A DNA stretch of 35,626 nt from positions 1 to 35,626 of the IMG/VR virus record IMGVR_UViG_3300021375_000088. One strand, given 5' to 3'. Positions 970 to 35,626 of this stretch are shown in pieces (within the stretch, counting starts at the first letter, position 1; every line of letters starts with the position of its first letter). This stretch comes from a virus (lineage: Duplodnaviria > Caudoviricetes). Position numbers and translations under genes: made by a program. Below the pieces are notes generated by a model. It saw only the letters and a list, made by a program, of their open reading frames with translations, did not search any database and was not told the origin of the DNA.

Positions 970-1237
970 AAAGTACGGAGTTCAAACTCTTATTGATAAG
1001 TTGCTGCAAGTATTTAAGTACCAAGAAATTGAAGATCCAAATGCTATTTTGTGGATCAGAGAAAAAACAAAGTTCATTACATTTCTTGCTAATAAATTAA
1101 CTGATTTATATTCTGACAATAAACCTATTAAACAAAACATAGATCAAAAAATGACTATTAGTTGGGAAGATAATCAAGATGATTTGATTGATGTATCAGA
1201 GGATATAGTTGATATACCCTCTGATAATAAAGATTAA
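761..1237 (+). CDS. terS: Terminase small subunit
   Basis: IICDALANGKTLTEIL HTH followed by AR..G....D, typical of Sf6/P22-like TerS. Confidence 0.75.
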   Translation: MNKSKITTTKKSNQELITTDQADIICDALANGKTLTEILENQKVYPFSLMKFYAYLKKNPELEIKITEARKYGVQTLIDKLLQVFKYQEIEDPNAILWIREKTKFITFLANKLTDLYSDNKPIKQNIDQKMTISWEDNQDDLIDVSEDIVDIPSDNKD

Positions 1238-1449
1238 TCGTGATCGTATTGTTTCATTACAATATTAAAACTAATATTGTGGTGTGCGTCATGGTTTTCC
1301 ATAAGTTCTTCAAGAACATTCATTAACTTTTTAATGTTCATACCATCATTGCTTTCATAAGTAGCCAAAACTTGATCTGTCATTTTCTTATCAGTTTTTT
1401 CATGGTACTTATTACCTTTTATTTCTACTTTGTATCTGTCTATGTACAT
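1234..1449 (-). CDS. Hypothetical early protein (71 aa)
   Basis: ORF with strong leader AACAGAAAGGGAAAACAATG. Confidence 0.8.
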   Translation of the reverse strand: MYIDRYKVEIKGNKYHEKTDKKMTDQVLATYESNDGMNIKKLMNVLEELMENHDAHHNISFNIVMKQYDHD

Positions 1450-1480
1450 TGTTTTCCCTTTCTGTTTGTTGTTAGTGAAA

Positions 1481-1504
1481 GTATGGAGATAAAAACATCC
1501 ATAC
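1481..1504 (-). ncRNA. Intergenic stem-loop, candidate antisense (anti-RBS) element
   Basis: 7-bp stem GTATGGA/TCCATAC with 10-nt loop; minus-strand RNA is complementary to the erf RBS (33073-33089). Confidence 0.45.
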
Positions 1505-1537
1505 CAATACCAAATAACCTAAAACTATATAGATCAT

Positions 1538-1771
1538 TTAGATTTTTTTAGCTATGTAATCAAAAATTGGATCCTTTTGACCAGACGCATAACTAATTCT
1601 TTTTTGATATAAAACCACAGTATTATTTTTTGCATTACGCATAAATAAATTTGCTGTATCTCTTACATCATTATTATAAAACCTATCTTTTGCTAAGTAG
1701 CCTTTGTGATAAGTTATGGTTTCGTTAGATTGAGCCGTTTGTAACCATGTTTCGTAGTTGTTTATTGTCAT
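1538..1771 (-). CDS. Hypothetical early protein (77 aa, MTINNYETWL...)
   Basis: Start moved to 1771 on the basis of SD AGAGGA; YHKGYLAKDR and LYQKR blocks. Confidence 0.8.
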   Translation of the reverse strand: MTINNYETWLQTAQSNETITYHKGYLAKDRFYNNDVRDTANLFMRNAKNNTVVLYQKRISYASGQKDPIFDYIAKKI

Positions 1772-1910
1772 TGTTTTTATCCTCTGTTTTTTTATTGTTA
1801 TAATTTCTAACAATCATTTTAATTGCTAGACCATTTTCATCTTTAAGAGTATTGAATAATATTTTTGTCAATTCCCTTACAGATAAATTTTGTTGTAGTT
1901 GTTTATTCAT
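1725..1910 (-). CDS. Hypothetical protein (MNKQLQQN...)
   Basis: ATG overlaps the end of the upstream gene, as expected for translational coupling. Confidence 0.6.
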   Translation of the reverse strand: MNKQLQQNLSVRELTKILFNTLKDENGLAIKMIVRNYNNKKTEDKNNDNKQLRNMVTNGSI

Positions 1911-2067
1911 ACCAAACTTCATTTGTTGGATAATAAACTTTTATTGCACCACCTTCTTTTGTTATGCAATCATCATTAGAGCAATAATAATATCCTAATC
2001 CTTCTTCAATGGTACAATTTTCATCCCATTCAAGATTACTTTTACATTCACAACATTTATATTTCAT
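1903..2067 (-). CDS. Small zinc-finger protein (54 aa, MKYKCCECKS...YCSNDDC)
   Basis: Manual translation; CxxC and CxxxxC; strong GAAAGGG leader. Confidence 0.8.
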   Translation of the reverse strand: MKYKCCECKSNLEWDENCTIEEGLGYYYCSNDDCITKEGGAIKVYYPTNEVWYE

Positions 2068-2088
2068 TTTATTTTCCCTTTCTGTTTT

Positions 2089-2196
2089 TTATATTATTAA
2101 TAATGCTAAACCCAAAATAATTATAGATACAAAAATGACGCACCACATAACTGCTTTGGTATATTTTCTATGTATTGCTTTACCCATTATAATCAT
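2089..2196 (-). CDS. Small membrane peptide (35 aa)
   Basis: MIIMGKAIHRKYTKAVMWCVIFVSIIILGLALLII; SD AGAGG. Confidence 0.65.
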   Translation of the reverse strand: MIIMGKAIHRKYTKAVMWCVIFVSIIILGLALLII

Positions 2197-2299
2197 ATTT
2201 TTTAACCTCTGTTTTCTTGTTGGTTTTTTTTGATTTTAAAAACTCGTAAACTATTGATATTAAACCATATAATAATAAAACTTTTATTGTCATATCCAT
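2180..2299 (-). CDS. Small N-anchored membrane peptide (39 aa)
   Basis: MDMTIKVLLLYGLISIVYEFLKSKK...; leader AACAGAAAGGA. Confidence 0.65.
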   Translation of the reverse strand: MDMTIKVLLLYGLISIVYEFLKSKKTNKKTEVKKYDYNG

Positions 2300-2301
2300 T
2301 T

Positions 2302-2481
2302 TTATTTATCCTTTCTGTTTGCTTCATTAATTATATCATCTGGTAAAGGTACTATATCATAATCATAATGTATTTTAAGATCATGTTGATTTAGATCTAT
2401 TTCTTTATTTATTTTTGCCAAATAATCGTTGAACTTTTTTATTGTTTTATTTAGTTTATCGCAGCTACTATCATCATTCAT
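2302..2481 (-). CDS. Hypothetical protein (59 aa, MNDDSSCDKL...)
   Basis: Manual translation; TAATG coupling to the upstream gene. Confidence 0.7.
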   Translation of the reverse strand: MNDDSSCDKLNKTIKKFNDYLAKINKEIDLNQHDLKIHYDYDIVPLPDDIINEANRKDK

Positions 2482-2729
2482 TAAACAACCCCCAATTTTT
2501 GCAATGTTTTAAGTTCTTGATCTGTTATTTCTTGACTTGAATAAACGCTTATTGCATTAAGCATTTGATTATCCCAATATACACCCTCATTAAGTTTATT
2601 TTTTTTCTTTAAACTCCAAAACTGTTTACAATATTTATAATCAGTTGTTTTATTATGAAATATATATTTATCACTATGCTGATAATCTCCTATTTGCATA
2701 TCAAATGTTACTAATATATTTTTACTCAT
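2481..2729 (-). CDS. Hypothetical early protein (82 aa)
   Basis: ORF track; SD GAGGA. Confidence 0.8.
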   Translation of the reverse strand: MSKNILVTFDMQIGDYQHSDKYIFHNKTTDYKYCKQFWSLKKKNKLNEGVYWDNQMLNAISVYSSQEITDQELKTLQKLGVV

Positions 2730-2957
2730 TTATTCCTCGCTTTCTTTCCATTTTTTAAAGTTAATAAAATCATCTGATAATCTATCTATATGCTCGTATA
2801 TTTCTGAACCCTCATAATATTGAAAGGGTTCCCAAGCATTATTTTGACAATAATCATTTACTTTTTTTTCTGACCATTTATCAAAATTTTTTGGCAATTC
2901 TTTAGATAAAAAATGGCTGCTTGCTAACATTAAACTTTCTTTTTCTGTTGGTGTCAT
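2730..2957 (-). CDS. Hypothetical early protein (75 aa)
   Basis: ORF track; leader ACAGAAAGCGAG. Confidence 0.8.
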   Translation of the reverse strand: MTPTEKESLMLASSHFLSKELPKNFDKWSEKKVNDYCQNNAWEPFQYYEGSEIYEHIDRLSDDFINFKKWKESEE

Positions 2958-2958
2958 G

Positions 2959-3108
2959 TTATTTACTCGCTTTCTGTTGTTTATATTGTTTTTTGTTTTT
3001 AGCTTTAGAATTTAAAATGCTGCAATATTCCTGAATATAATACTCATGTTGATATTTATTTTTAATAATTCTATTGATTGCATTAATTCTTTTATCTTTC
3101 CAATTCAT
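2959..3108 (-). CDS. Hypothetical basic protein (49 aa, MNWKDKRINAINR...)
   Basis: Manual translation; exactly fills the gap between neighbours. Confidence 0.7.
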   Translation of the reverse strand: MNWKDKRINAINRIIKNKYQHEYYIQEYCSILNSKAKNKKQYKQQKASK

Positions 3109-3110
3109 AA

Positions 3111-3398
3111 TTAATAAGCTTGTATTATTAATCTTTCAGTGTCTGGTATTTCAATTACTGTTGTATGGTTTCTTAAATCTTCAAGACTTTTAATATCTCT
3201 ATAATTGTCTTGTACTTTTTTTAAGCTGTCATACTCATCAAAATCACATCTGATTGCAATTGGATCAAATTCTAATTCTTGATCGCAATCTTGTTCGTAT
3301 TGCTCAAAATGTTTAAACAATGCTTTAGTTCCCTCGTAGCTAAAACCATGTTCAATCATCTCATTTGTAAAAGTGTGTTCTGTTATTGTGTCTTTCAT
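3111..3398 (-). CDS. Acidic hypothetical protein, possible DNA mimic
   Basis: 23 D/E versus 10 K/R in 95 aa; FSYEG..ALF and DPIAIRCDF blocks; strong leader. Confidence 0.8.
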   Translation of the reverse strand: MKDTITEHTFTNEMIEHGFSYEGTKALFKHFEQYEQDCDQELEFDPIAIRCDFDEYDSLKKVQDNYRDIKSLEDLRNHTTVIEIPDTERLIIQAY

Positions 3399-3416
3399 TT
3401 TGTTTTTTCCTTTCTA

Positions 3417-3590
3417 TTAATAATTATTTTTACACCAATCAACTAGCTTGTTTTTTACTGTGTCAAAATCTAGTTTTTGTTTTATTAGTTTTTTAGCTTG
3501 TTTAACAAAATTGCTATCTTCCATTAAAAAATTTGGTGATATTGATACCTCACCCGATACAAGTAGTATTAGTTTTTCGCCTTTGCTCAT
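3417..3590 (-). CDS. Hypothetical protein (57 aa, MSKGEKLILL...)
   Basis: Manual translation; leader AACTAACAAAGGGGAAAC. Confidence 0.75.
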   Translation of the reverse strand: MSKGEKLILLVSGEVSISPNFLMEDSNFVKQAKKLIKQKLDFDTVKNKLVDWCKNNY

Positions 3591-3611
3591 TTGTTTCCCC
3601 TTTGTTAGTTG

Positions 3612-3830
3612 TTATTTTAAATTTGTTGTTGAAATTTTGCCATCACCAATAATACAATAGCTTTCAACCTCGTAATGATTTTTAAAAACTTTATTGTGTT
3701 CTATAATTGCATCTATCCAATCTTTACAATTTACAGTTAATCTAGTTTTTCTTAAATCATCATGTGTAGCATTTTTATAAATGTATTTTGCAACACTAAT
3801 CAAAAATGTTTTTTTGTTTGTTTTTGTCAT
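3612..3830 (-). CDS. Hypothetical early protein (72 aa)
   Basis: ORF track; leader AACTAACGAAAGGAAAC. Confidence 0.8.
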   Translation of the reverse strand: MTKTNKKTFLISVAKYIYKNATHDDLRKTRLTVNCKDWIDAIIEHNKVFKNHYEVESYCIIGDGKISTTNLK

Positions 3831-3886
3831 AGTTTCCTTTCGTTAGTTGTTTTCTATTTTTATAATTGTTATTGTTTTATTTTTAT

Positions 3887-3904
3887 AGTTGCCAAATTGT
3901 CGCA
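3887..3904 (-). promoter_or_regulatory. Candidate early promoter/operator motif, copy 1
   Basis: AGTTGCCAAATTGTCGCA, 16/18 identical to 5057-5074; intergenic. Confidence 0.6.
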
Positions 3905-3905
3905 T

Positions 3906-3968
3906 CTATTTACCAAATATTAAAGTAATTATTATTGCTAATACTAAAGCTAAATAAAAATATTCCAT
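3906..3968 (-). CDS. 20-aa hydrophobic micro-peptide (MEYFYLALVLAIIITLIFGK)
   Basis: Strong leader AGAAAGGTAAAACAATG, same as that of the adjacent gene. Confidence 0.6.
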   Translation of the reverse strand: MEYFYLALVLAIIITLIFGK

Positions 3969-3991
3969 TGTTTTACCTTTCTATTGTTGCG

Positions 3992-4150
3992 TTAATCTAT
4001 AAAGTTTCTAGCAAAATCTAAAGCAAATAATAAAAAGCAACCAAACGTTAATATAAACCCTAATGATTGCTGACTTGGATCAGTTGCTAAAATAACCATA
4101 CCTAACATTGAGCATGATAAAAGTATTAACCATTTAATTATTGTAAGCAT
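3992..4150 (-). CDS. Two-TM membrane protein (52 aa)
   Basis: MLTIIKWLILLSCSMLGMVILATDPSQQSLGFILTFGCFLLFALDFARNFID; strong leader. Confidence 0.75.
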   Translation of the reverse strand: MLTIIKWLILLSCSMLGMVILATDPSQQSLGFILTFGCFLLFALDFARNFID

Positions 4151-4154
4151 TGTT

Positions 4155-4442
4155 TTACCTTTCTTTATTTAGTTGTTTTATTCCATATTTAGCAGCACAA
4201 TTCACACCACAAAATTTATATTTACCTAAATAATAATAATAACTTTCTCCATCCCATAATTTGTAAGAATAGATTGTATCTCCATTTTTAATATTTAATG
4301 ATGGCATTGAGAAACCATCTACTATTATTTTTTTTTTCATATAACAAATCAAATTGCCTTTATAAGATTCTTTTTGATTTCTTATATCTTTAGTCATTCT
4401 TCTTAATGTTTTATTACAAGTTATACATTTAACTTTTTTCAT
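4155..4442 (-). CDS. Zinc-finger hypothetical protein
   Basis: CITC ... FCGVNC. Confidence 0.8.
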   Translation of the reverse strand: MKKVKCITCNKTLRRMTKDIRNQKESYKGNLICYMKKKIIVDGFSMPSLNIKNGDTIYSYKLWDGESYYYYLGKYKFCGVNCAAKYGIKQLNKER

Positions 4443-4461
4443 AGTTCCCTTTCTTAGTTGT

Positions 4462-4680
4462 TTATTTAATAAATTTAATTTGTTTTTGTGTTAATTTTGT
4501 GGCATGGAAACCAACCGCTTCAAGATCACTTGTAAAAAATTGACAACTATCACACCTTTCAATATGTGGTTTATGATAAGGATCATTTTTTGCAATCAAA
4601 CCTGAACTTTCAACATCTTGAAAATATCCATAACCATCGCAATCTTTACAATTATTTATTTTGTGTTTATATTTTTGCAT
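4462..4680 (-). CDS. DnaJ-type CxxCxGxG zinc-finger protein
   Basis: CKDCDGYG ... CDSC. Confidence 0.75.
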   Translation of the reverse strand: MQKYKHKINNCKDCDGYGYFQDVESSGLIAKNDPYHKPHIERCDSCQFFTSDLEAVGFHATKLTQKQIKFIK

Positions 4681-4683
4681 TGT

Positions 4684-5022
4684 TTACCCTTTCGTTGATT
4701 GAATATAATCTTTTAAAATATAAAAATTAAAAGAATATTTATTGTTTTTATTAAAATTATTCACAAATCTTTGAAATTCAGCTTTAGAACCTTTAAGAGT
4801 ATGAGAAGCACAATCAATTAAATTATGTGATAAATCATCAACATTAAGCCAATCAATATCATTAATTAAGTGTAAATGTTTTTTGTATATAATATGATTT
4901 GACCATTGACCATCTTGATCTTTAGCAATAAAGACAAAATTATTTAGAGGTGAAATTGCATACCAACTGGCATAACAACCATTAAATTTTTTAGATGTTT
5001 TTTTCCAAATTAATTTTTTCAT
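4684..5022 (-). CDS. Hypothetical protein, first gene of the leftward cassette
   Basis: ORF track, ATG at 5022. Confidence 0.7.
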   Translation of the reverse strand: MKKLIWKKTSKKFNGCYASWYAISPLNNFVFIAKDQDGQWSNHIIYKKHLHLINDIDWLNVDDLSHNLIDCASHTLKGSKAEFQRFVNNFNKNNKYSFNFYILKDYIQSTKG

Positions 5023-5056
5023 AAATATCAATTTAACATATTAGTTAATTAATATC

Positions 5057-31452: not shown

Positions 31453-31499
31453 AGATCCCCTACGTTTTCCTTTCTTTTTTTTCAACTCTTAGTTATTAT

Positions 31500-31829: not shown

Positions 31830-32039
31830 TTATTTGTTTTTTTCAACTTCTTTTTTAATCAAAAAATCTATATACTGTTTGGCTTTTTTAAGATCTTCAA
31901 TACCATTTTTTCTTTTATATCTAGAAATGTATTTAATTACATTGCCTTCACAAAAATCAAATTCATTTTGAATTATAAAGTCAATAGGTTCAATCTTATT
32001 TGCTACGTAATGTTTGGGTTCTTTTATATTATCTGTCAT
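31830..32039 (-). CDS. DUF3310 (SaV-like / T7 gp1.7-related) protein
   Basis: P.HY...IEPIDFI, GNVIKYISR, EDLKKA; start MTDN at 32039. Confidence 0.88.
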   Translation of the reverse strand: MTDNIKEPKHYVANKIEPIDFIIQNEFDFCEGNVIKYISRYKRKNGIEDLKKAKQYIDFLIKKEVEKNK

Positions 32040-32054
32040 ATTAAATCCTTTTTT

Positions 32055-32100
32055 AAGCAAGGTGGGGAAAACGGAAAGGGAAAAAAACCCCACCCTGCTT
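32055..32100 (-). ncRNA. 13-bp stem with 20-nt pyrimidine loop, candidate anti-Shine-Dalgarno RNA
   Basis: Fully paired on the minus strand (one G-U), no U-tract, loop UUUUUUUCCCUUUCCGUUUU. Confidence 0.5.
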
Positions 32101-32116
32101 GATACATTCTAATTAA

Positions 32117-32410
32117 TTAGAAAGTATATTCGTTATTAGCACCATCATTTGCTTTTGCAAAGCTATTATTAGTAGCTTTTCCTGCTCCACTTGGCGTTAA
32201 AATTATTGTCAACTCACCTTCTTTAACATTGCCATCTTGATCTTTAGATGGAAACGCAGCTTGGTTGTACCATTGACCATTAACATTTACTCCAACTGTC
32301 CAGTTTTTGTCTGGATGTTTCATGTTTTTTGGACCAATATAAACTGGAACTTTATCTGCTGGAGATTTCCAATCTGGGTTTTTTACTAGGTTAATGTATA
32401 TTTTATCCAT
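32117..32410 (-). CDS. Probable single-stranded DNA-binding protein
   Basis: Follows erf; beta-rich core with flexible tail ending EYTF. Confidence 0.55.
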   Translation of the reverse strand: MDKIYINLVKNPDWKSPADKVPVYIGPKNMKHPDKNWTVGVNVNGQWYNQAAFPSKDQDGNVKEGELTIILTPSGAGKATNNSFAKANDGANNEYTF

Positions 32411-32438: not shown

Positions 32439-33074
32439 TTATGATTGATTATTTTTTAGTTGAATCTCACGAACACCAGCAGCGTCTGCTACTTGTTTAT
32501 ATGCTCGTAAGTTATTTTTAATTAGATATTGGACTTGCTCTCTATACTTAGATTTAACAGAATTAAACTCTGTTAAACTTTTAGCATTTTTAAGTTCATC
32601 TTTTATCTCTTCCACATTTATACTATCATCAGTATATTGTGGTTCTGCTTCTACAGATGGCTCTGAAGAATTTTGTTTAAATGGTTTTGCATTATAACCA
32701 TCTTCTAAATCCATTCCTGTCTTTAGATTTAATGCGTTTAAGAAAGCATACTTTTTACTGTATGACATAGCTTGACCAGTTCCATATTTATCTAAACCAC
32801 CCATTGCAGTACAACCATCAATTATAATAAAATTACTTGGTTCATCAACGTCAGTTATTTTCATAGTGCAAGTTACGATTACAAACTTATCTGTTATATC
32901 TGTAATGTAATTACAAGTTGGATATAAACCATTTTCTAATAGAGCTGCCATTGCAACTCTTTGAACGTCATCGTGCAATAAAGGATTAAAAGGCATACCT
33001 TTAACTTTACTTGCTTTCTTTACACCACTTGCATGATTACAAGCATTGTATAATTTCTTATGTATGTTTCCCAT
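32439..33074 (-). CDS. erf: ERF-family ssDNA annealing protein
   Basis: G.AMSYSKKYAFL..L.L.TG.D.E signature; start at 33074 with SD GGAGA and 8-nt spacer. Confidence 0.88.
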   Translation of the reverse strand: MGNIHKKLYNACNHASGVKKASKVKGMPFNPLLHDDVQRVAMAALLENGLYPTCNYITDITDKFVIVTCTMKITDVDEPSNFIIIDGCTAMGGLDKYGTGQAMSYSKKYAFLNALNLKTGMDLEDGYNAKPFKQNSSEPSVEAEPQYTDDSINVEEIKDELKNAKSLTEFNSVKSKYREQVQYLIKNNLRAYKQVADAAGVREIQLKNNQS

Positions 33075-33111
33075 GTTTTTATTCTCCATTTTATATATGT
33101 TATTTGTTTCT

Positions 33112-34038
33112 CTACTCATATTTTACTCCCCATAGTTTAGTTATTAATTGTTTTTGTTCATCTGCTAAATCTTTGTAATAAAAAAAGTGATTAAGATCTG
33201 GTGGTTCAATCATCATTGCTAATGTTTCCAACTTACCTTCGGCAAACATAATCATTCTTTCCCAAAGTAAGATCTTCTCAACCATTTTAAAATAAAGATA
33301 TTCCAAATGATCTGCCTTCATTAACTCATGGCTTTGGTCAAAGATAATATAATCTTTGTCATTAACATATACCAAGTAAGGTATTTTTTTTGTTGCCATG
33401 TAGTAGAATGAAGTTTGTGTTAAGTTTTCAATTGTAGGTTCAGTAGGTAGATCTTGAGTTATCATGTTCCACTCTTCTTTACCTTTTACTTTTCTTAAAT
33501 TAGGTGGCTTCGTTTTAAGTTCTATAAATTTTGTTTTACTTTCATAATCTATACGACCAATGACAGGTTTAATCATAGTCATTTCTTTTAATTCAACATA
33601 CCTTTCACAAACTAATTTTTCTTTACCAATAATATCCTGGACAACTTTCTTTGTAATTGGAATACAATCTTCGGCAAACTTCAACATTGATTTTCTGCCA
33701 AACTTATCTTTAGCATCTACTGGTTCTTTTTCATTTATAATTTCTAATTCTTTTTTAAAACAATTTTGGTAGCTTCTATCTTCTTCTGTAAACTCATCTT
33801 GTTTAATTGTTTTTGATTTATAGATTACATCTGCAATCATTCTCTGAACCACATTATTAACTAGGTTACCAAAGTTTGCTTTGTATCTAAATGCAAATGT
33901 TCTTCTAATTTCTTGAGGGAAAGTATAACCAATTAGATTTTTTGCAAAGGGTGTTGATGTTGATGAATAAGACCAATGATCTAAACCTTCACCACCATTA
34001 AATATTGAAAATGCTTTTTTTATTTTATTTTTTTCCAT
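33112..34038 (-). CDS. PD-(D/E)XK exonuclease (RecE/Cas4-like), partner of ERF
   Basis: H.S.S, GRID, IELKT, Q...Y motifs. Confidence 0.85.
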   Translation of the reverse strand: MEKNKIKKAFSIFNGGEGLDHWSYSSTSTPFAKNLIGYTFPQEIRRTFAFRYKANFGNLVNNVVQRMIADVIYKSKTIKQDEFTEEDRSYQNCFKKELEIINEKEPVDAKDKFGRKSMLKFAEDCIPITKKVVQDIIGKEKLVCERYVELKEMTMIKPVIGRIDYESKTKFIELKTKPPNLRKVKGKEEWNMITQDLPTEPTIENLTQTSFYYMATKKIPYLVYVNDKDYIIFDQSHELMKADHLEYLYFKMVEKILLWERMIMFAEGKLETLAMMIEPPDLNHFFYYKDLADEQKQLITKLWGVKYE

Positions 34039-34064: not shown

Positions 34065-34113
34065 ATTATAATGATTTTTTAATGTTGTCAACGGATAATT
34101 TTAATTGTATAAC
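34065..34113. promoter_or_regulatory. Divergent sigma70-type promoters with overlapping -35 elements
   Basis: Plus: TTGTCA(34085)-17-TATAAC(34108); minus: TTGACA(34091)-15-TATAAT(34070). Confidence 0.6.
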
Positions 34114-34561: not shown

Positions 34562-34951
34562 GTGGCTAGAGATGTTTACGCTTTTAGTAATGGAAAATAT
34601 TCTGATTGGCACAGAAAATATGACGGAATTGCTTACATCGATGTAGATTCTGTTGAATGCTGTATGTATTGTTACGAACCTTTAGCTATTATTGAGACTT
34701 GTTATGACAAAGGTCAGAAATTTAAGGCTACAACCCTCTCAAAGATCATCGCTAGTCGCTTAAATATACCCTGTTTTTTAGTATTCTATAAGGAACTGGA
34801 CAACACAAGCCTAACCTTTAGGATCAAGCGTATACGCAGCTCTCAGACCGAATTTCAGCTTATGAATGAGAATGAATGGGTAGAAATATTAAGAACTTTG
34901 CACGACCACCACAAAACACTATGTAAATCAACCAAACGAAAGGAAAAATAA
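34562..34951 (+). CDS. Putative restriction-endonuclease-fold protein
   Basis: IDVD.VE, CxxC, AIIET; probable GTG start after AGGA. Confidence 0.6.
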   Translation: MARDVYAFSNGKYSDWHRKYDGIAYIDVDSVECCMYCYEPLAIIETCYDKGQKFKATTLSKIIASRLNIPCFLVFYKELDNTSLTFRIKRIRSSQTEFQLMNENEWVEILRTLHDHHKTLCKSTKRKEK

Positions 34952-35626
34952 TGAACACATCAAGAGGATTCTTACACATTACCTATAAGGTATATCACCA
35001 CTTAGATCTGGTGGATGGAGAAAAAAAATCTCATTGTCTCAATGTTTTATTATCTGTAATGAAATATGCCTGGAAGAAAAATGGATATAGAGCAGATTTA
35101 AGGCATGAAACAATTCATAAAGATACTGGTCTTTGCCGAACCACTATTAAGTCATGCTTAGAAACTCTTAATAAATTAAATATTGTTAAATCTATTAGAG
35201 GTAGATCTGGTAAAACTTATATTGTTAATGAGATATTTTTAAAGGTTGAGAAAACTTATGAGAATTTTGAAAAACCTCAGATAGCCGTTAAACCTACACA
35301 AGATAGCCGTTTTACGGCTACATTAGAAGAAGAATTAAGTATTAATAATATAGGTAAAATAGTTAAGAGATTAGCAGGGGATAAGGAGAAGATAATAAAC
35401 GAATTATCAACCCTACCTATTGAAGAACTAAAAACAGATAAATCTAACCCATATTATTGTAAACTTGCTATTGAGAAAAAAGAAGATTCTGGAAAATCAT
35501 ATGTATCTTCAGATAAAATTTTATCTGCATTGTCCAATTTAAAAAACCAAAGAAAAAAAGCTAACCCCTTTTACAAAGCTAAAGTTGAATACAATAAAAG
35601 AAACAATCTAAACTGGAAAGGAGAAC
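34951..35626 (+). CDS. Putative wHTH replication initiator (lambda O-like); runs off the window and ends at 413
   Basis: LRHETIHKDTGLCRTTIKSCLETLNKLNIV HTH, wing RGRSGKTY, internal iteron-like repeats; absent from the ORF track. Confidence 0.75.
   Translation, partial: MNTSRGFLHITYKVYHHLDLVDGEKKSHCLNVLLSVMKYAWKKNGYRADLRHETIHKDTGLCRTTIKSCLETLNKLNIVKSIRGRSGKTYIVNEIFLKVEKTYENFEKPQIAVKPTQDSRFTATLEEELSINNIGKIVKRLAGDKEKIINELSTLPIEELKTDKSNPYYCKLAIEKKEDSGKSYVSSDKILSALSNLKNQRKKANPFYKAKVEYNKRNNLNWKGE
35231..35626. repeat. Terminal direct repeat, copy 2
   Basis: Matches 1-396 with 5 substitutions. Confidence 0.97.

Follow-up and report, generated by a model that had tools for sequence, protein, structure and literature searches.

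The 35,626-nt stretch of viral DNA analyzed here (IMG/VR record IMGVR_UViG_3300021375_000088, hereafter the window) encodes on its minus strand, just past an ssb-like gene, an RNA hairpin (32055-32100) that is real and is conserved across the phage family as sampled. Its stems and overall architecture vary between clades with compensation, the loop core is retained, and even the inner stems that expose the core are compensated; the hairpin is an RNA structure selected to display a fixed motif. What we observed directly comprises the structure, its strand, its family-wide conservation, the complementarity of the loop to leaders of the phage's own genes, a bias of that complementarity toward one class of leaders, and co-variation in one lineage. 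Judging from these sequence features, we consider it probable, at somewhat better than an even chance, that the hairpin acts as a 3'-UTR antisense riboregulator, which would occlude phage-specific ribosome-binding sites without Hfq.

The phages concerned, of the HTVC010P type, are among the most abundant marine viruses and encode no RNA polymerase, and the available text of the Skadi genome paper reports that no terminators or RNA switches were found (PMC10504331). An RNA that is conserved and recognizes a ribosome-binding motif peculiar to these phages would offer a concrete mechanism for ordering their gene expression, in phages that are in culture (HTVC100P, Greip, Skadi, and Lederberg). 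If the proposal is true, antisense control by C-rich loops would come to include the 3' UTR of a replication message of a phage, with many genes as its targets.

The hairpin, its operon and its conservation

The operon of the window is 80-82% identical to those of HTVC100P, HTVC204P, Greip, and HTVC024P, and the window is therefore an HTVC010P-type pelagiphage. Its initial 40 bases recur at 35231 (positions 1-396 against 35231-35626), and this terminal redundancy makes it probable that the record holds a complete genome, assembled as a circle, despite the IMG/VR class linear. The operon is read from the minus strand and begins with a putative nuclease gene (33112-34038, named after the annotation of relatives), the leader of which may be targeted in cis in several clades, followed by a gene for an ERF single-strand annealing protein (32439-33119; PF04404, phrog_155) and by the ssb-like gene (32117-32410, 97 aa, DUF736-like), which has AAGGAG as its own leader and carries the hairpin in its 3' UTR, 16 nt past the stop codon. 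The DUF3310 gene (31830-32039, minus strand; PF11753) begins 15 nt past the stem, and its leader pairs poorly with the loop (-4.8 kcal/mol). The name "ssb" used by the earlier note is best kept as putative: it is suggested by the position after ERF and by a DUF736-like Atlas score of 0.90 (the family being found on 10% of members), and it was not confirmed by Pfam or PHROGs, neither of which gave a match, nor by two fold searches, in which nothing was clear (best Foldseek E 0.96, best VIA Z 3.1); no relatives of the protein were found in GTDB genomes. Two sigma-70-like promoters that diverge and overlap can be read in the sequence where the nuclease and initiator operons part (34065-34113), TTGACA-15-TATAAT for the minus strand and TTGTCA-17-TATAAC for the plus strand; they are unlisted by the promoter scan, and both the promoter and the terminator scans gave results at chance level.

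The minus strand folds into a 13-bp stem (5' arm 32088-32100, 3' arm 32055-32067) closed by a 20-nt loop (32068-32087), with an energy of -22.6 kcal/mol and a z-score of -6.2, equaled by none of 200 shuffles; the plus strand leaves one mismatch and reaches -18.2 kcal/mol. The full pairing on the transcribed strand only, which the earlier note had described from the window, is thereby borne out, and so is, for the side after the stem, its statement that there is no U-tract, given that at least five T within 8 nt follow the stem in 1/318 loci. We accordingly rejected an intrinsic terminator, in view of the 20-nt loop, of that single U-tract, and of the silence of the terminator scan at this site. 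The core of the loop, UUCCCUUUC (32074-32082, minus strand), is the proposed seed, and its UCCC is predicted to be unpaired (0.81-1.0). Additionally, a weak second hairpin (32101-32127) spans the ssb-like stop codon, and one clade has a cleaner 6-bp hairpin there.

Conservation was followed through 324 ssb-like loci, taken from seven viral scans with their relatives, ten cultured genomes, and the window; six of these had less than 130 nt past the stop and were dropped, and the remaining 318 are redundant, reducing to 93 distinct hairpins. Within 130 nt of the stop codon, the core (CCCUUUC or a one-base variant) is found in 316/318 loci, as CCCTTTC in 291, TCCTTTC in 12, and CCCTTCG in 14 (overlapping counts), against a background of 367 of 20,869 sequence windows in which the hairpins themselves are counted. 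Six groups of hairpins can be told apart, in agreement with the protein tree, which was built from 47 of the 316 proteins, the window's protein not included. A simple loop of 19-32 nt characterizes three groups; in the other three, an outer stem leads through U-rich internal loops to an inner stem with the core in its apical loop, which is as short as 8 nt in one clade. G-U pairs on the ssb strand occur in 93 of the 93 distinct hairpins (155 G-U versus 35 A-C). Among 28 sequences of the HTVC010P clade, 96% of the cells pair and 9 of the 19 pairs are changed on both sides, above shuffled and slid controls, which lean in favor of the structure because it was derived from those same sequences. 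As to whether loop or stem is the conserved part, a check that the earlier note had named, the core is thus kept while the stems change.

Flanking the core, a U run directly after the 5' arm is present in 92 of the 93 hairpins and GUUU(U) before the 3' arm in 91 of them (32081-32087 and 32068-32072 in the window); both occur in all six clades, even where inner stems part them from the core. They are not accounted for by target pairing, and might either lengthen the stem, through U-U pairs together with a U-G pair, or serve as a protein-binding site. In one clade, exemplified by L082:28208-28299, a second pyrimidine motif, CUCCCUCUU, lies on the 3' side of the inner stem, where it may serve internal pairing or as a second seed.

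These flanks bear on the main rival to a regulatory role, namely that the stem is a transcript-end or decay barrier, which would keep ssb high and the downstream genes low, with the loop binding not mRNA but a protein, be it ribosomal protein S1, a nuclease, or the product of the ssb-like gene. In every clade there is a strong stem past the ssb-like stop codon, the conserved U runs persist even where the core is set apart from them, and RNA contigs from two studies end at 32140-32141, a weak hint given that run X20 continues beyond. The virtual lack of a U-tract speaks against it, as does the fixed loop, which a barrier does not need; moreover, a protein site predicts neither the AAAGGG bias of the early leaders nor the flank co-variation described below. 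We regard this alternative as unlikely while giving it real weight. Of the 18 runs recorded as RNA, seven were analyzed, together with one more of unrecorded kind; each of the seven reaches into the ssb-like gene, and in none is the middle of DUF3310 represented. Because these are assembled contigs, which give no ends, strand, or level, the gap is not counted as evidence; RNA records X1 and X6 extend across the hairpin. A 3' UTR is a likelier form of the RNA than a free sRNA. Masking of the Shine-Dalgarno (SD) sequence of the downstream DUF3310 gene was also considered; since 242/318 loci have no AAGG between the stem and the next ATG, it is excluded as a general role.

Predicted targets and loop-leader co-variation

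The best ungapped matches to the complement of the loop within the window lie at 2069-2088 (18/20) and 1449-1468 (17/20), in agreement with the earlier note, and 18/20 on 65 start regions was reached by none of 3000 shuffled loops. What has to be revised is the length of the duplex: the longest unbroken helix is 11 bp with each of the two leaders, not 18, and helix geometry suggests that 18 bp are out of reach for a closed 20-nt loop, so that the core outweighs the full match. Both matches are leaders of a minus-strand cassette of small genes (1234-5031), presumed early from its layout and from the early/late division given in the accessible part of PMC8477408. The best predicted target is the leader of gene 1903-2067 (2069-2088; -18.4 kcal/mol), followed by those of genes 1234-1449 (1449-1468; -17.7 kcal/mol, with GAAAGG in 17/18 homologue loci), 4155-4442 (GAAAGGGAA at 4445-4453; -13.3 kcal/mol), and 4462-4680 (GAAAGGG at 4687-4693; -11.4 kcal/mol), all on the minus strand; the leader of the lambda O-like initiator gene on the plus strand (34932-34950; -10.7 kcal/mol) is a weaker predicted target. 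The ten early leaders examined are predicted to be unpaired (0.67-0.98). GAAAGG is present in 8 of the 16 leaders of the cassette, in line with the series of such leaders that had been listed from the sequence, of which the ORFs at 3968 and 2299 have only 20 and 39 codons.

As for the genes said to escape, the claim holds for the late genes (GAAAGG in 0/37 late leaders of the window), and the ssb leader pairs with the loop at only -5.2 kcal/mol; it does not hold throughout the hairpin's own operon, where the nuclease leader GGAAAAAA reaches -10.0 kcal/mol and the region upstream of DnaA_C -12.9 kcal/mol. About 20 nt before the AGGGG SD of the DnaA_C gene itself lies GAAAGGAAAA (31461-31480), an arrangement seen in 61/85 loci of the window's clade and hardly ever in two others. 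We also noted a small ORF just past the initiator (380-530), with a strong GAAAGGAG leader inside the initiator 3' end.

Leader classes were counted in 11 complete genomes by our own ORF caller, with region limits taken from annotations; these genomes are related and the counts non-independent. For the window, the two ends were joined 8 bases off in this count, which affects only its six initiator-operon calls. GAAAGG leads 40/111 genes of the early cassette, 4/439 late genes, 1/68 genes of the ssb operon, and 9/67 of the initiator operon, and AGGAG shows the reverse (1/111 early versus 64/439 late); GAAAGG is found in 0/250 leaders of ssb-like genes, and in 9/1281 leaders (0.7%) of one Pelagibacter chromosome. 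At -8 kcal/mol or better, the 9-nt core pairs with 28/111 early, 3/439 late, and 25/1281 host leaders, and among 70 strong early leaders it beats the 16S tail in 15. Since the core is strong with only 28 of the 111 early leaders, the firm target set is, on these modeled energies, a few genes per genome and not the whole cassette. The early bias asserted by the earlier note stands, and its extension to a whole class of early mRNAs does not, one clade in addition having few early targets. Hybridization was also set against shuffled window loops: the early-late energy gap was equaled by 1/1000, whereas mean early binding was equaled by 41/1000, a modest advantage only. Of the refuting outcomes that the earlier note had named, the three that were checked (a loop less conserved than the stem, hybridization no better than shuffles, and signs of a plain terminator) did not materialize.

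The targets differ between clades. One clade keeps the core in 31/31 loci, yet has GAAAGG in 5/27 early leaders (0/6 in two contigs); in this clade with few early targets, the cro-like gene has GAAAGG in 17/17. Initiator leaders contain GAAAGG in 47/52 loci of the window's clade only (0/61 in two other clades), cro-like leaders in 46/56 and 17/17 in two clades and 0/27 in another, and nuclease leaders contain AAAGG in 43/58, 38/55, 10/11, and 7/11 in four clades, in 12/54 in the window's clade, and in 0/20 in another. We searched for a single universal target among initiator, nuclease, ERF, DnaA_C, cro-like, and first initiator-operon genes, and found none in every clade. The cro-like small gene (label inferred, no Pfam match) heads the initiator operon in most clades (e.g., L485:8143-8361 and L087:33436-33660); in the window's clade it was seen in six loci only, and it is absent from the window.

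These counts invite the narrower reading that the loop controls one or two replication-control genes only, for example by joining the two ends of its own message at the nuclease leader (5'-3' pairing) or by binding a cro-like or initiator leader, and that the early cassette simply happens to be of the same SD type. The four clades with nuclease AAAGG, the two with cro-like GAAAGG, and the initiator of the window's clade are consistent with it, and it would cover the clade with few early targets. Nevertheless, neither nuclease, cro-like, nor initiator is a target in every clade, and the best matches of the window are early-cassette leaders, so we allow this reading a small chance.

In the Skadi lineage (tree support 94/94), the 5' flank of the loop, AGUU, is accompanied by AAGG[AG]AACT early leaders, found in 19/70 AAGG leaders versus 4/216 in the other clades, and the nuclease leaders of this lineage, AAAGGAACT, are in step with the loop flank. 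Being confined to one lineage, the co-variation amounts to one phylogenetic contrast. In the window's clade, the variants of the loop 3' flank are not mirrored in leaders; loop/target co-variation, another check named beforehand, thus came out positive in one lineage and negative for that flank. A comparison of own and foreign loops in 11 genomes gave p 0.005, apparently driven by the Skadi lineage, and so lends no separate support. Within the same lineage, ssb leaders contain AAAGG in 80/80 (AAAAGGAAA), and the escape of ssb from the loop may be incomplete there.

Could the element lack any role as RNA and be a relic or site at the DNA level, such as an inverted copy of an early leader, an operator, or a single-stranded DNA signal? 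On the plus strand its loop does read like an early leader, and copying from leaders would also yield co-variation. Against this, six clades keep the core although the structure around it was rebuilt, the mRNA strand is consistently the one with G-U pairs, and the core-exposing inner stems are compensated; we deem this the least probable of all the readings weighed.

Proposed action and known systems

We propose that the hairpin would accumulate in the course of infection, either as the stable 3' end of the nuclease-ERF-ssb message or as a piece processed from it. Its unpaired 8-10-nt core would nucleate, chaperone-free, on unstructured A-rich leaders, with the flanking U runs lengthening the duplex in the simple-loop clades; the duplex would rival the 16S tail and block 30S entry. 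Some of the presumed early and replication-control genes would be targeted at their AAAGG(G) ribosome-binding sites and their translation damped; late genes with AGGAG leaders would escape, as would most genes of the host and the majority of ssb messages. The outcome would be a timer or a negative feedback that moves scarce ribosomes from early to later genes, and RNase III cleavage of the duplex would be optional. Hfq and ProQ were not found in the three Pelagibacter genomes searched and RNase III was found in 3/3, which fits chaperone-free pairing with optional duplex cleavage.

Thinking more broadly, it is conceivable, at a little under an even chance, that HTVC010P-type phages sort their genes by Shine-Dalgarno dialect, and that the ssb message ends in an RNA reader of the AAAGG(G) dialect. 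That dialect would serve early and replication-control genes and would hardly be used by host or late genes, and the hairpin might then be regarded, with the same reserve, as an RNA-only counterpart of T4 RegB, a developmental timer in a phage without its own RNA polymerase and in a host without Hfq.

By the best reading, and by analogy, the hairpin would fairly probably work like the C-rich loops of RsaE-type RNAs and like the icaR 3' UTR, paralleling RegB in outcome. As described in the available portion of PMC2790875, RsaE and other UCCC-loop sRNAs of S. aureus bind mRNAs through an unpaired C-rich motif, block the ribosomal initiation complex, and are expressed independently of Hfq. The likeness lies in the conserved UCCC, predicted unpaired, in the pelagiphage loop; the difference is that RsaE-type RNAs, in the same portion, are host chromosomal and independently transcribed with a UCCC motif, whereas the pelagiphage element is phage-encoded, lies past a coding gene, and has a UCCCUUUC core that reads the shifted GAAAGG(G) of the phage's own genes. 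In the icaR 3' UTR of S. aureus, according to the text available of PMC3868564, an anti-SD motif blocks initiation and makes an RNase III substrate by pairing with the SD of its own mRNA. In contrast, the pelagiphage ssb leader lacks GAAAGG and the best matches are on other transcripts, so icaR-type self-pairing with the ssb SD was rejected on the 0/250 count and on the weak energy in the window. An icaR-like pairing with the operon's first (nuclease) leader would find AAAGG in most loci of four clades, in 12/54 of the window's clade, and in 0/20 of another.

Two further RNA systems were considered for membership and rejected. The c4 antisense RNA of phages P1 and P7 is likewise a phage RNA, processed from a longer transcript, with loops that pair with phage mRNAs (PMC5320573, as excerpted), and its likeness to the pelagiphage loop is one of complementarity to the phage's own mRNA leaders only. 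In the same excerpt c4 has three stem-loops, is processed by RNase P, and acts in immunity and lysogeny, whereas the pelagiphage element is a single hairpin with one loop and many predicted targets, in phages without annotated integrase, and has no Rfam C4 match. Indeed, searches of Rfam with the element from four sources, the RsaE and C4 families included, gave no match at the gathering score, and one chance match (E 2.9). The cuckoo RNAs of Alphaproteobacteria, the same host class, show a fixed aSD-like loop on variable, compensated stems, and in the part of PMC4615179 available they are two to four host-encoded hairpins with CCUCCUCCC; the pelagiphage RNA, by contrast, has a single CCCUUUC loop after a phage gene, and only 4/318 loci have a CCTCC in the 130 nt past the stop.

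T4 RegB offers a functional analogy, in that early mRNAs are shut off via a motif in the SD region and late mRNAs resist; it is a protein nuclease that cuts GGAG with S1 (PMC3014915, available sections), whereas the proposed pelagiphage reader is an RNA. The zombie-cell phenotype, a loss of rRNA that the accessible text of PMC11066056 quantifies for other phage types, was set aside, having no shown link to the hairpin. In the literature covered, which leaves out most subscription journals, we found no paper that describes such a pelagiphage hairpin, and the main texts of two family papers contain neither "hairpin" nor "Shine".

The loop core, the host 16S tail and host leaders

In the supplement rows of PMC6107228, the Pelagibacter 16S gene ends in GATTACCTCCTTT and then CT, which marks the gene end; the same end stretch is present in many Pelagibacterales genomes. 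The loop shares only the distal CCUUUC(U) of this tail and has UUC where the host has CCU; it is therefore weak with AGGAG/GGAGG and strong with GAAAGG(G). The pairing energies of the loop are -3.7 kcal/mol with AGGAG and -12.6 kcal/mol with GAAAGGGAA, those of the 16S tail -7.7 and -9.4 kcal/mol, respectively. CTCCTT occurs in 0/318 loci, and the loop is therefore not a copy of the 16S tail. When all 512 C/U 9-mers were ranked by their separation of early from late leaders, the natural core came 9th and the host tail 38th. It should be kept in mind that early leaders pair best with the host tail too (median -9.1 versus -5.3 kcal/mol for late leaders), so that part of the early-late bias is ordinary SD strength. 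The base after AAAGG is G in 24/60 early, 0/55 late, and 5/58 host leaders, and this G costs the 16S tail 0.9 kcal/mol and gains the core 5.4 kcal/mol.

A last alternative is that the loop mimics the host 16S 3' end, and either blocks host or generic SD sites or acts as a decoy for a factor that recognizes that end. The CCUUUC(U) common to loop and host tail region is in its favor, as is the resemblance of two of the nine host GAAAGG genes to ribosomal proteins S8 and S19. On the other side, the CCUCC core is absent from the loop, GAAAGG leaders are rare in the host, three genomes show no genome-wide excess of the pattern over its control, and it is the phage leaders that the loop flank follows, the host tail being constant. 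We therefore hold such mimicry to be very improbable. The two host genes (L409:9125 and L409:12805, in host G001) look, by their N-termini, like those of S19 and S8, and they are possible host targets.

Some leaders deserve mention in their own right. A recurrent leader, GAAAGCGAG(G), at 2729 and 2957 in the window and in the early cassettes of relatives, is a full 16S-tail match plus one extra C, and suggests that mature host 16S reaches CCUUUCU; leaders of this type pair poorly with the loop core, and GAAAGCGAGG occurs in 33 distinct leaders. Finally, the host ORF L408:2350-2941, also in host G001, has a leader like the phage early type (TAACGGAAAGGAACTT), and is possibly phage-derived.
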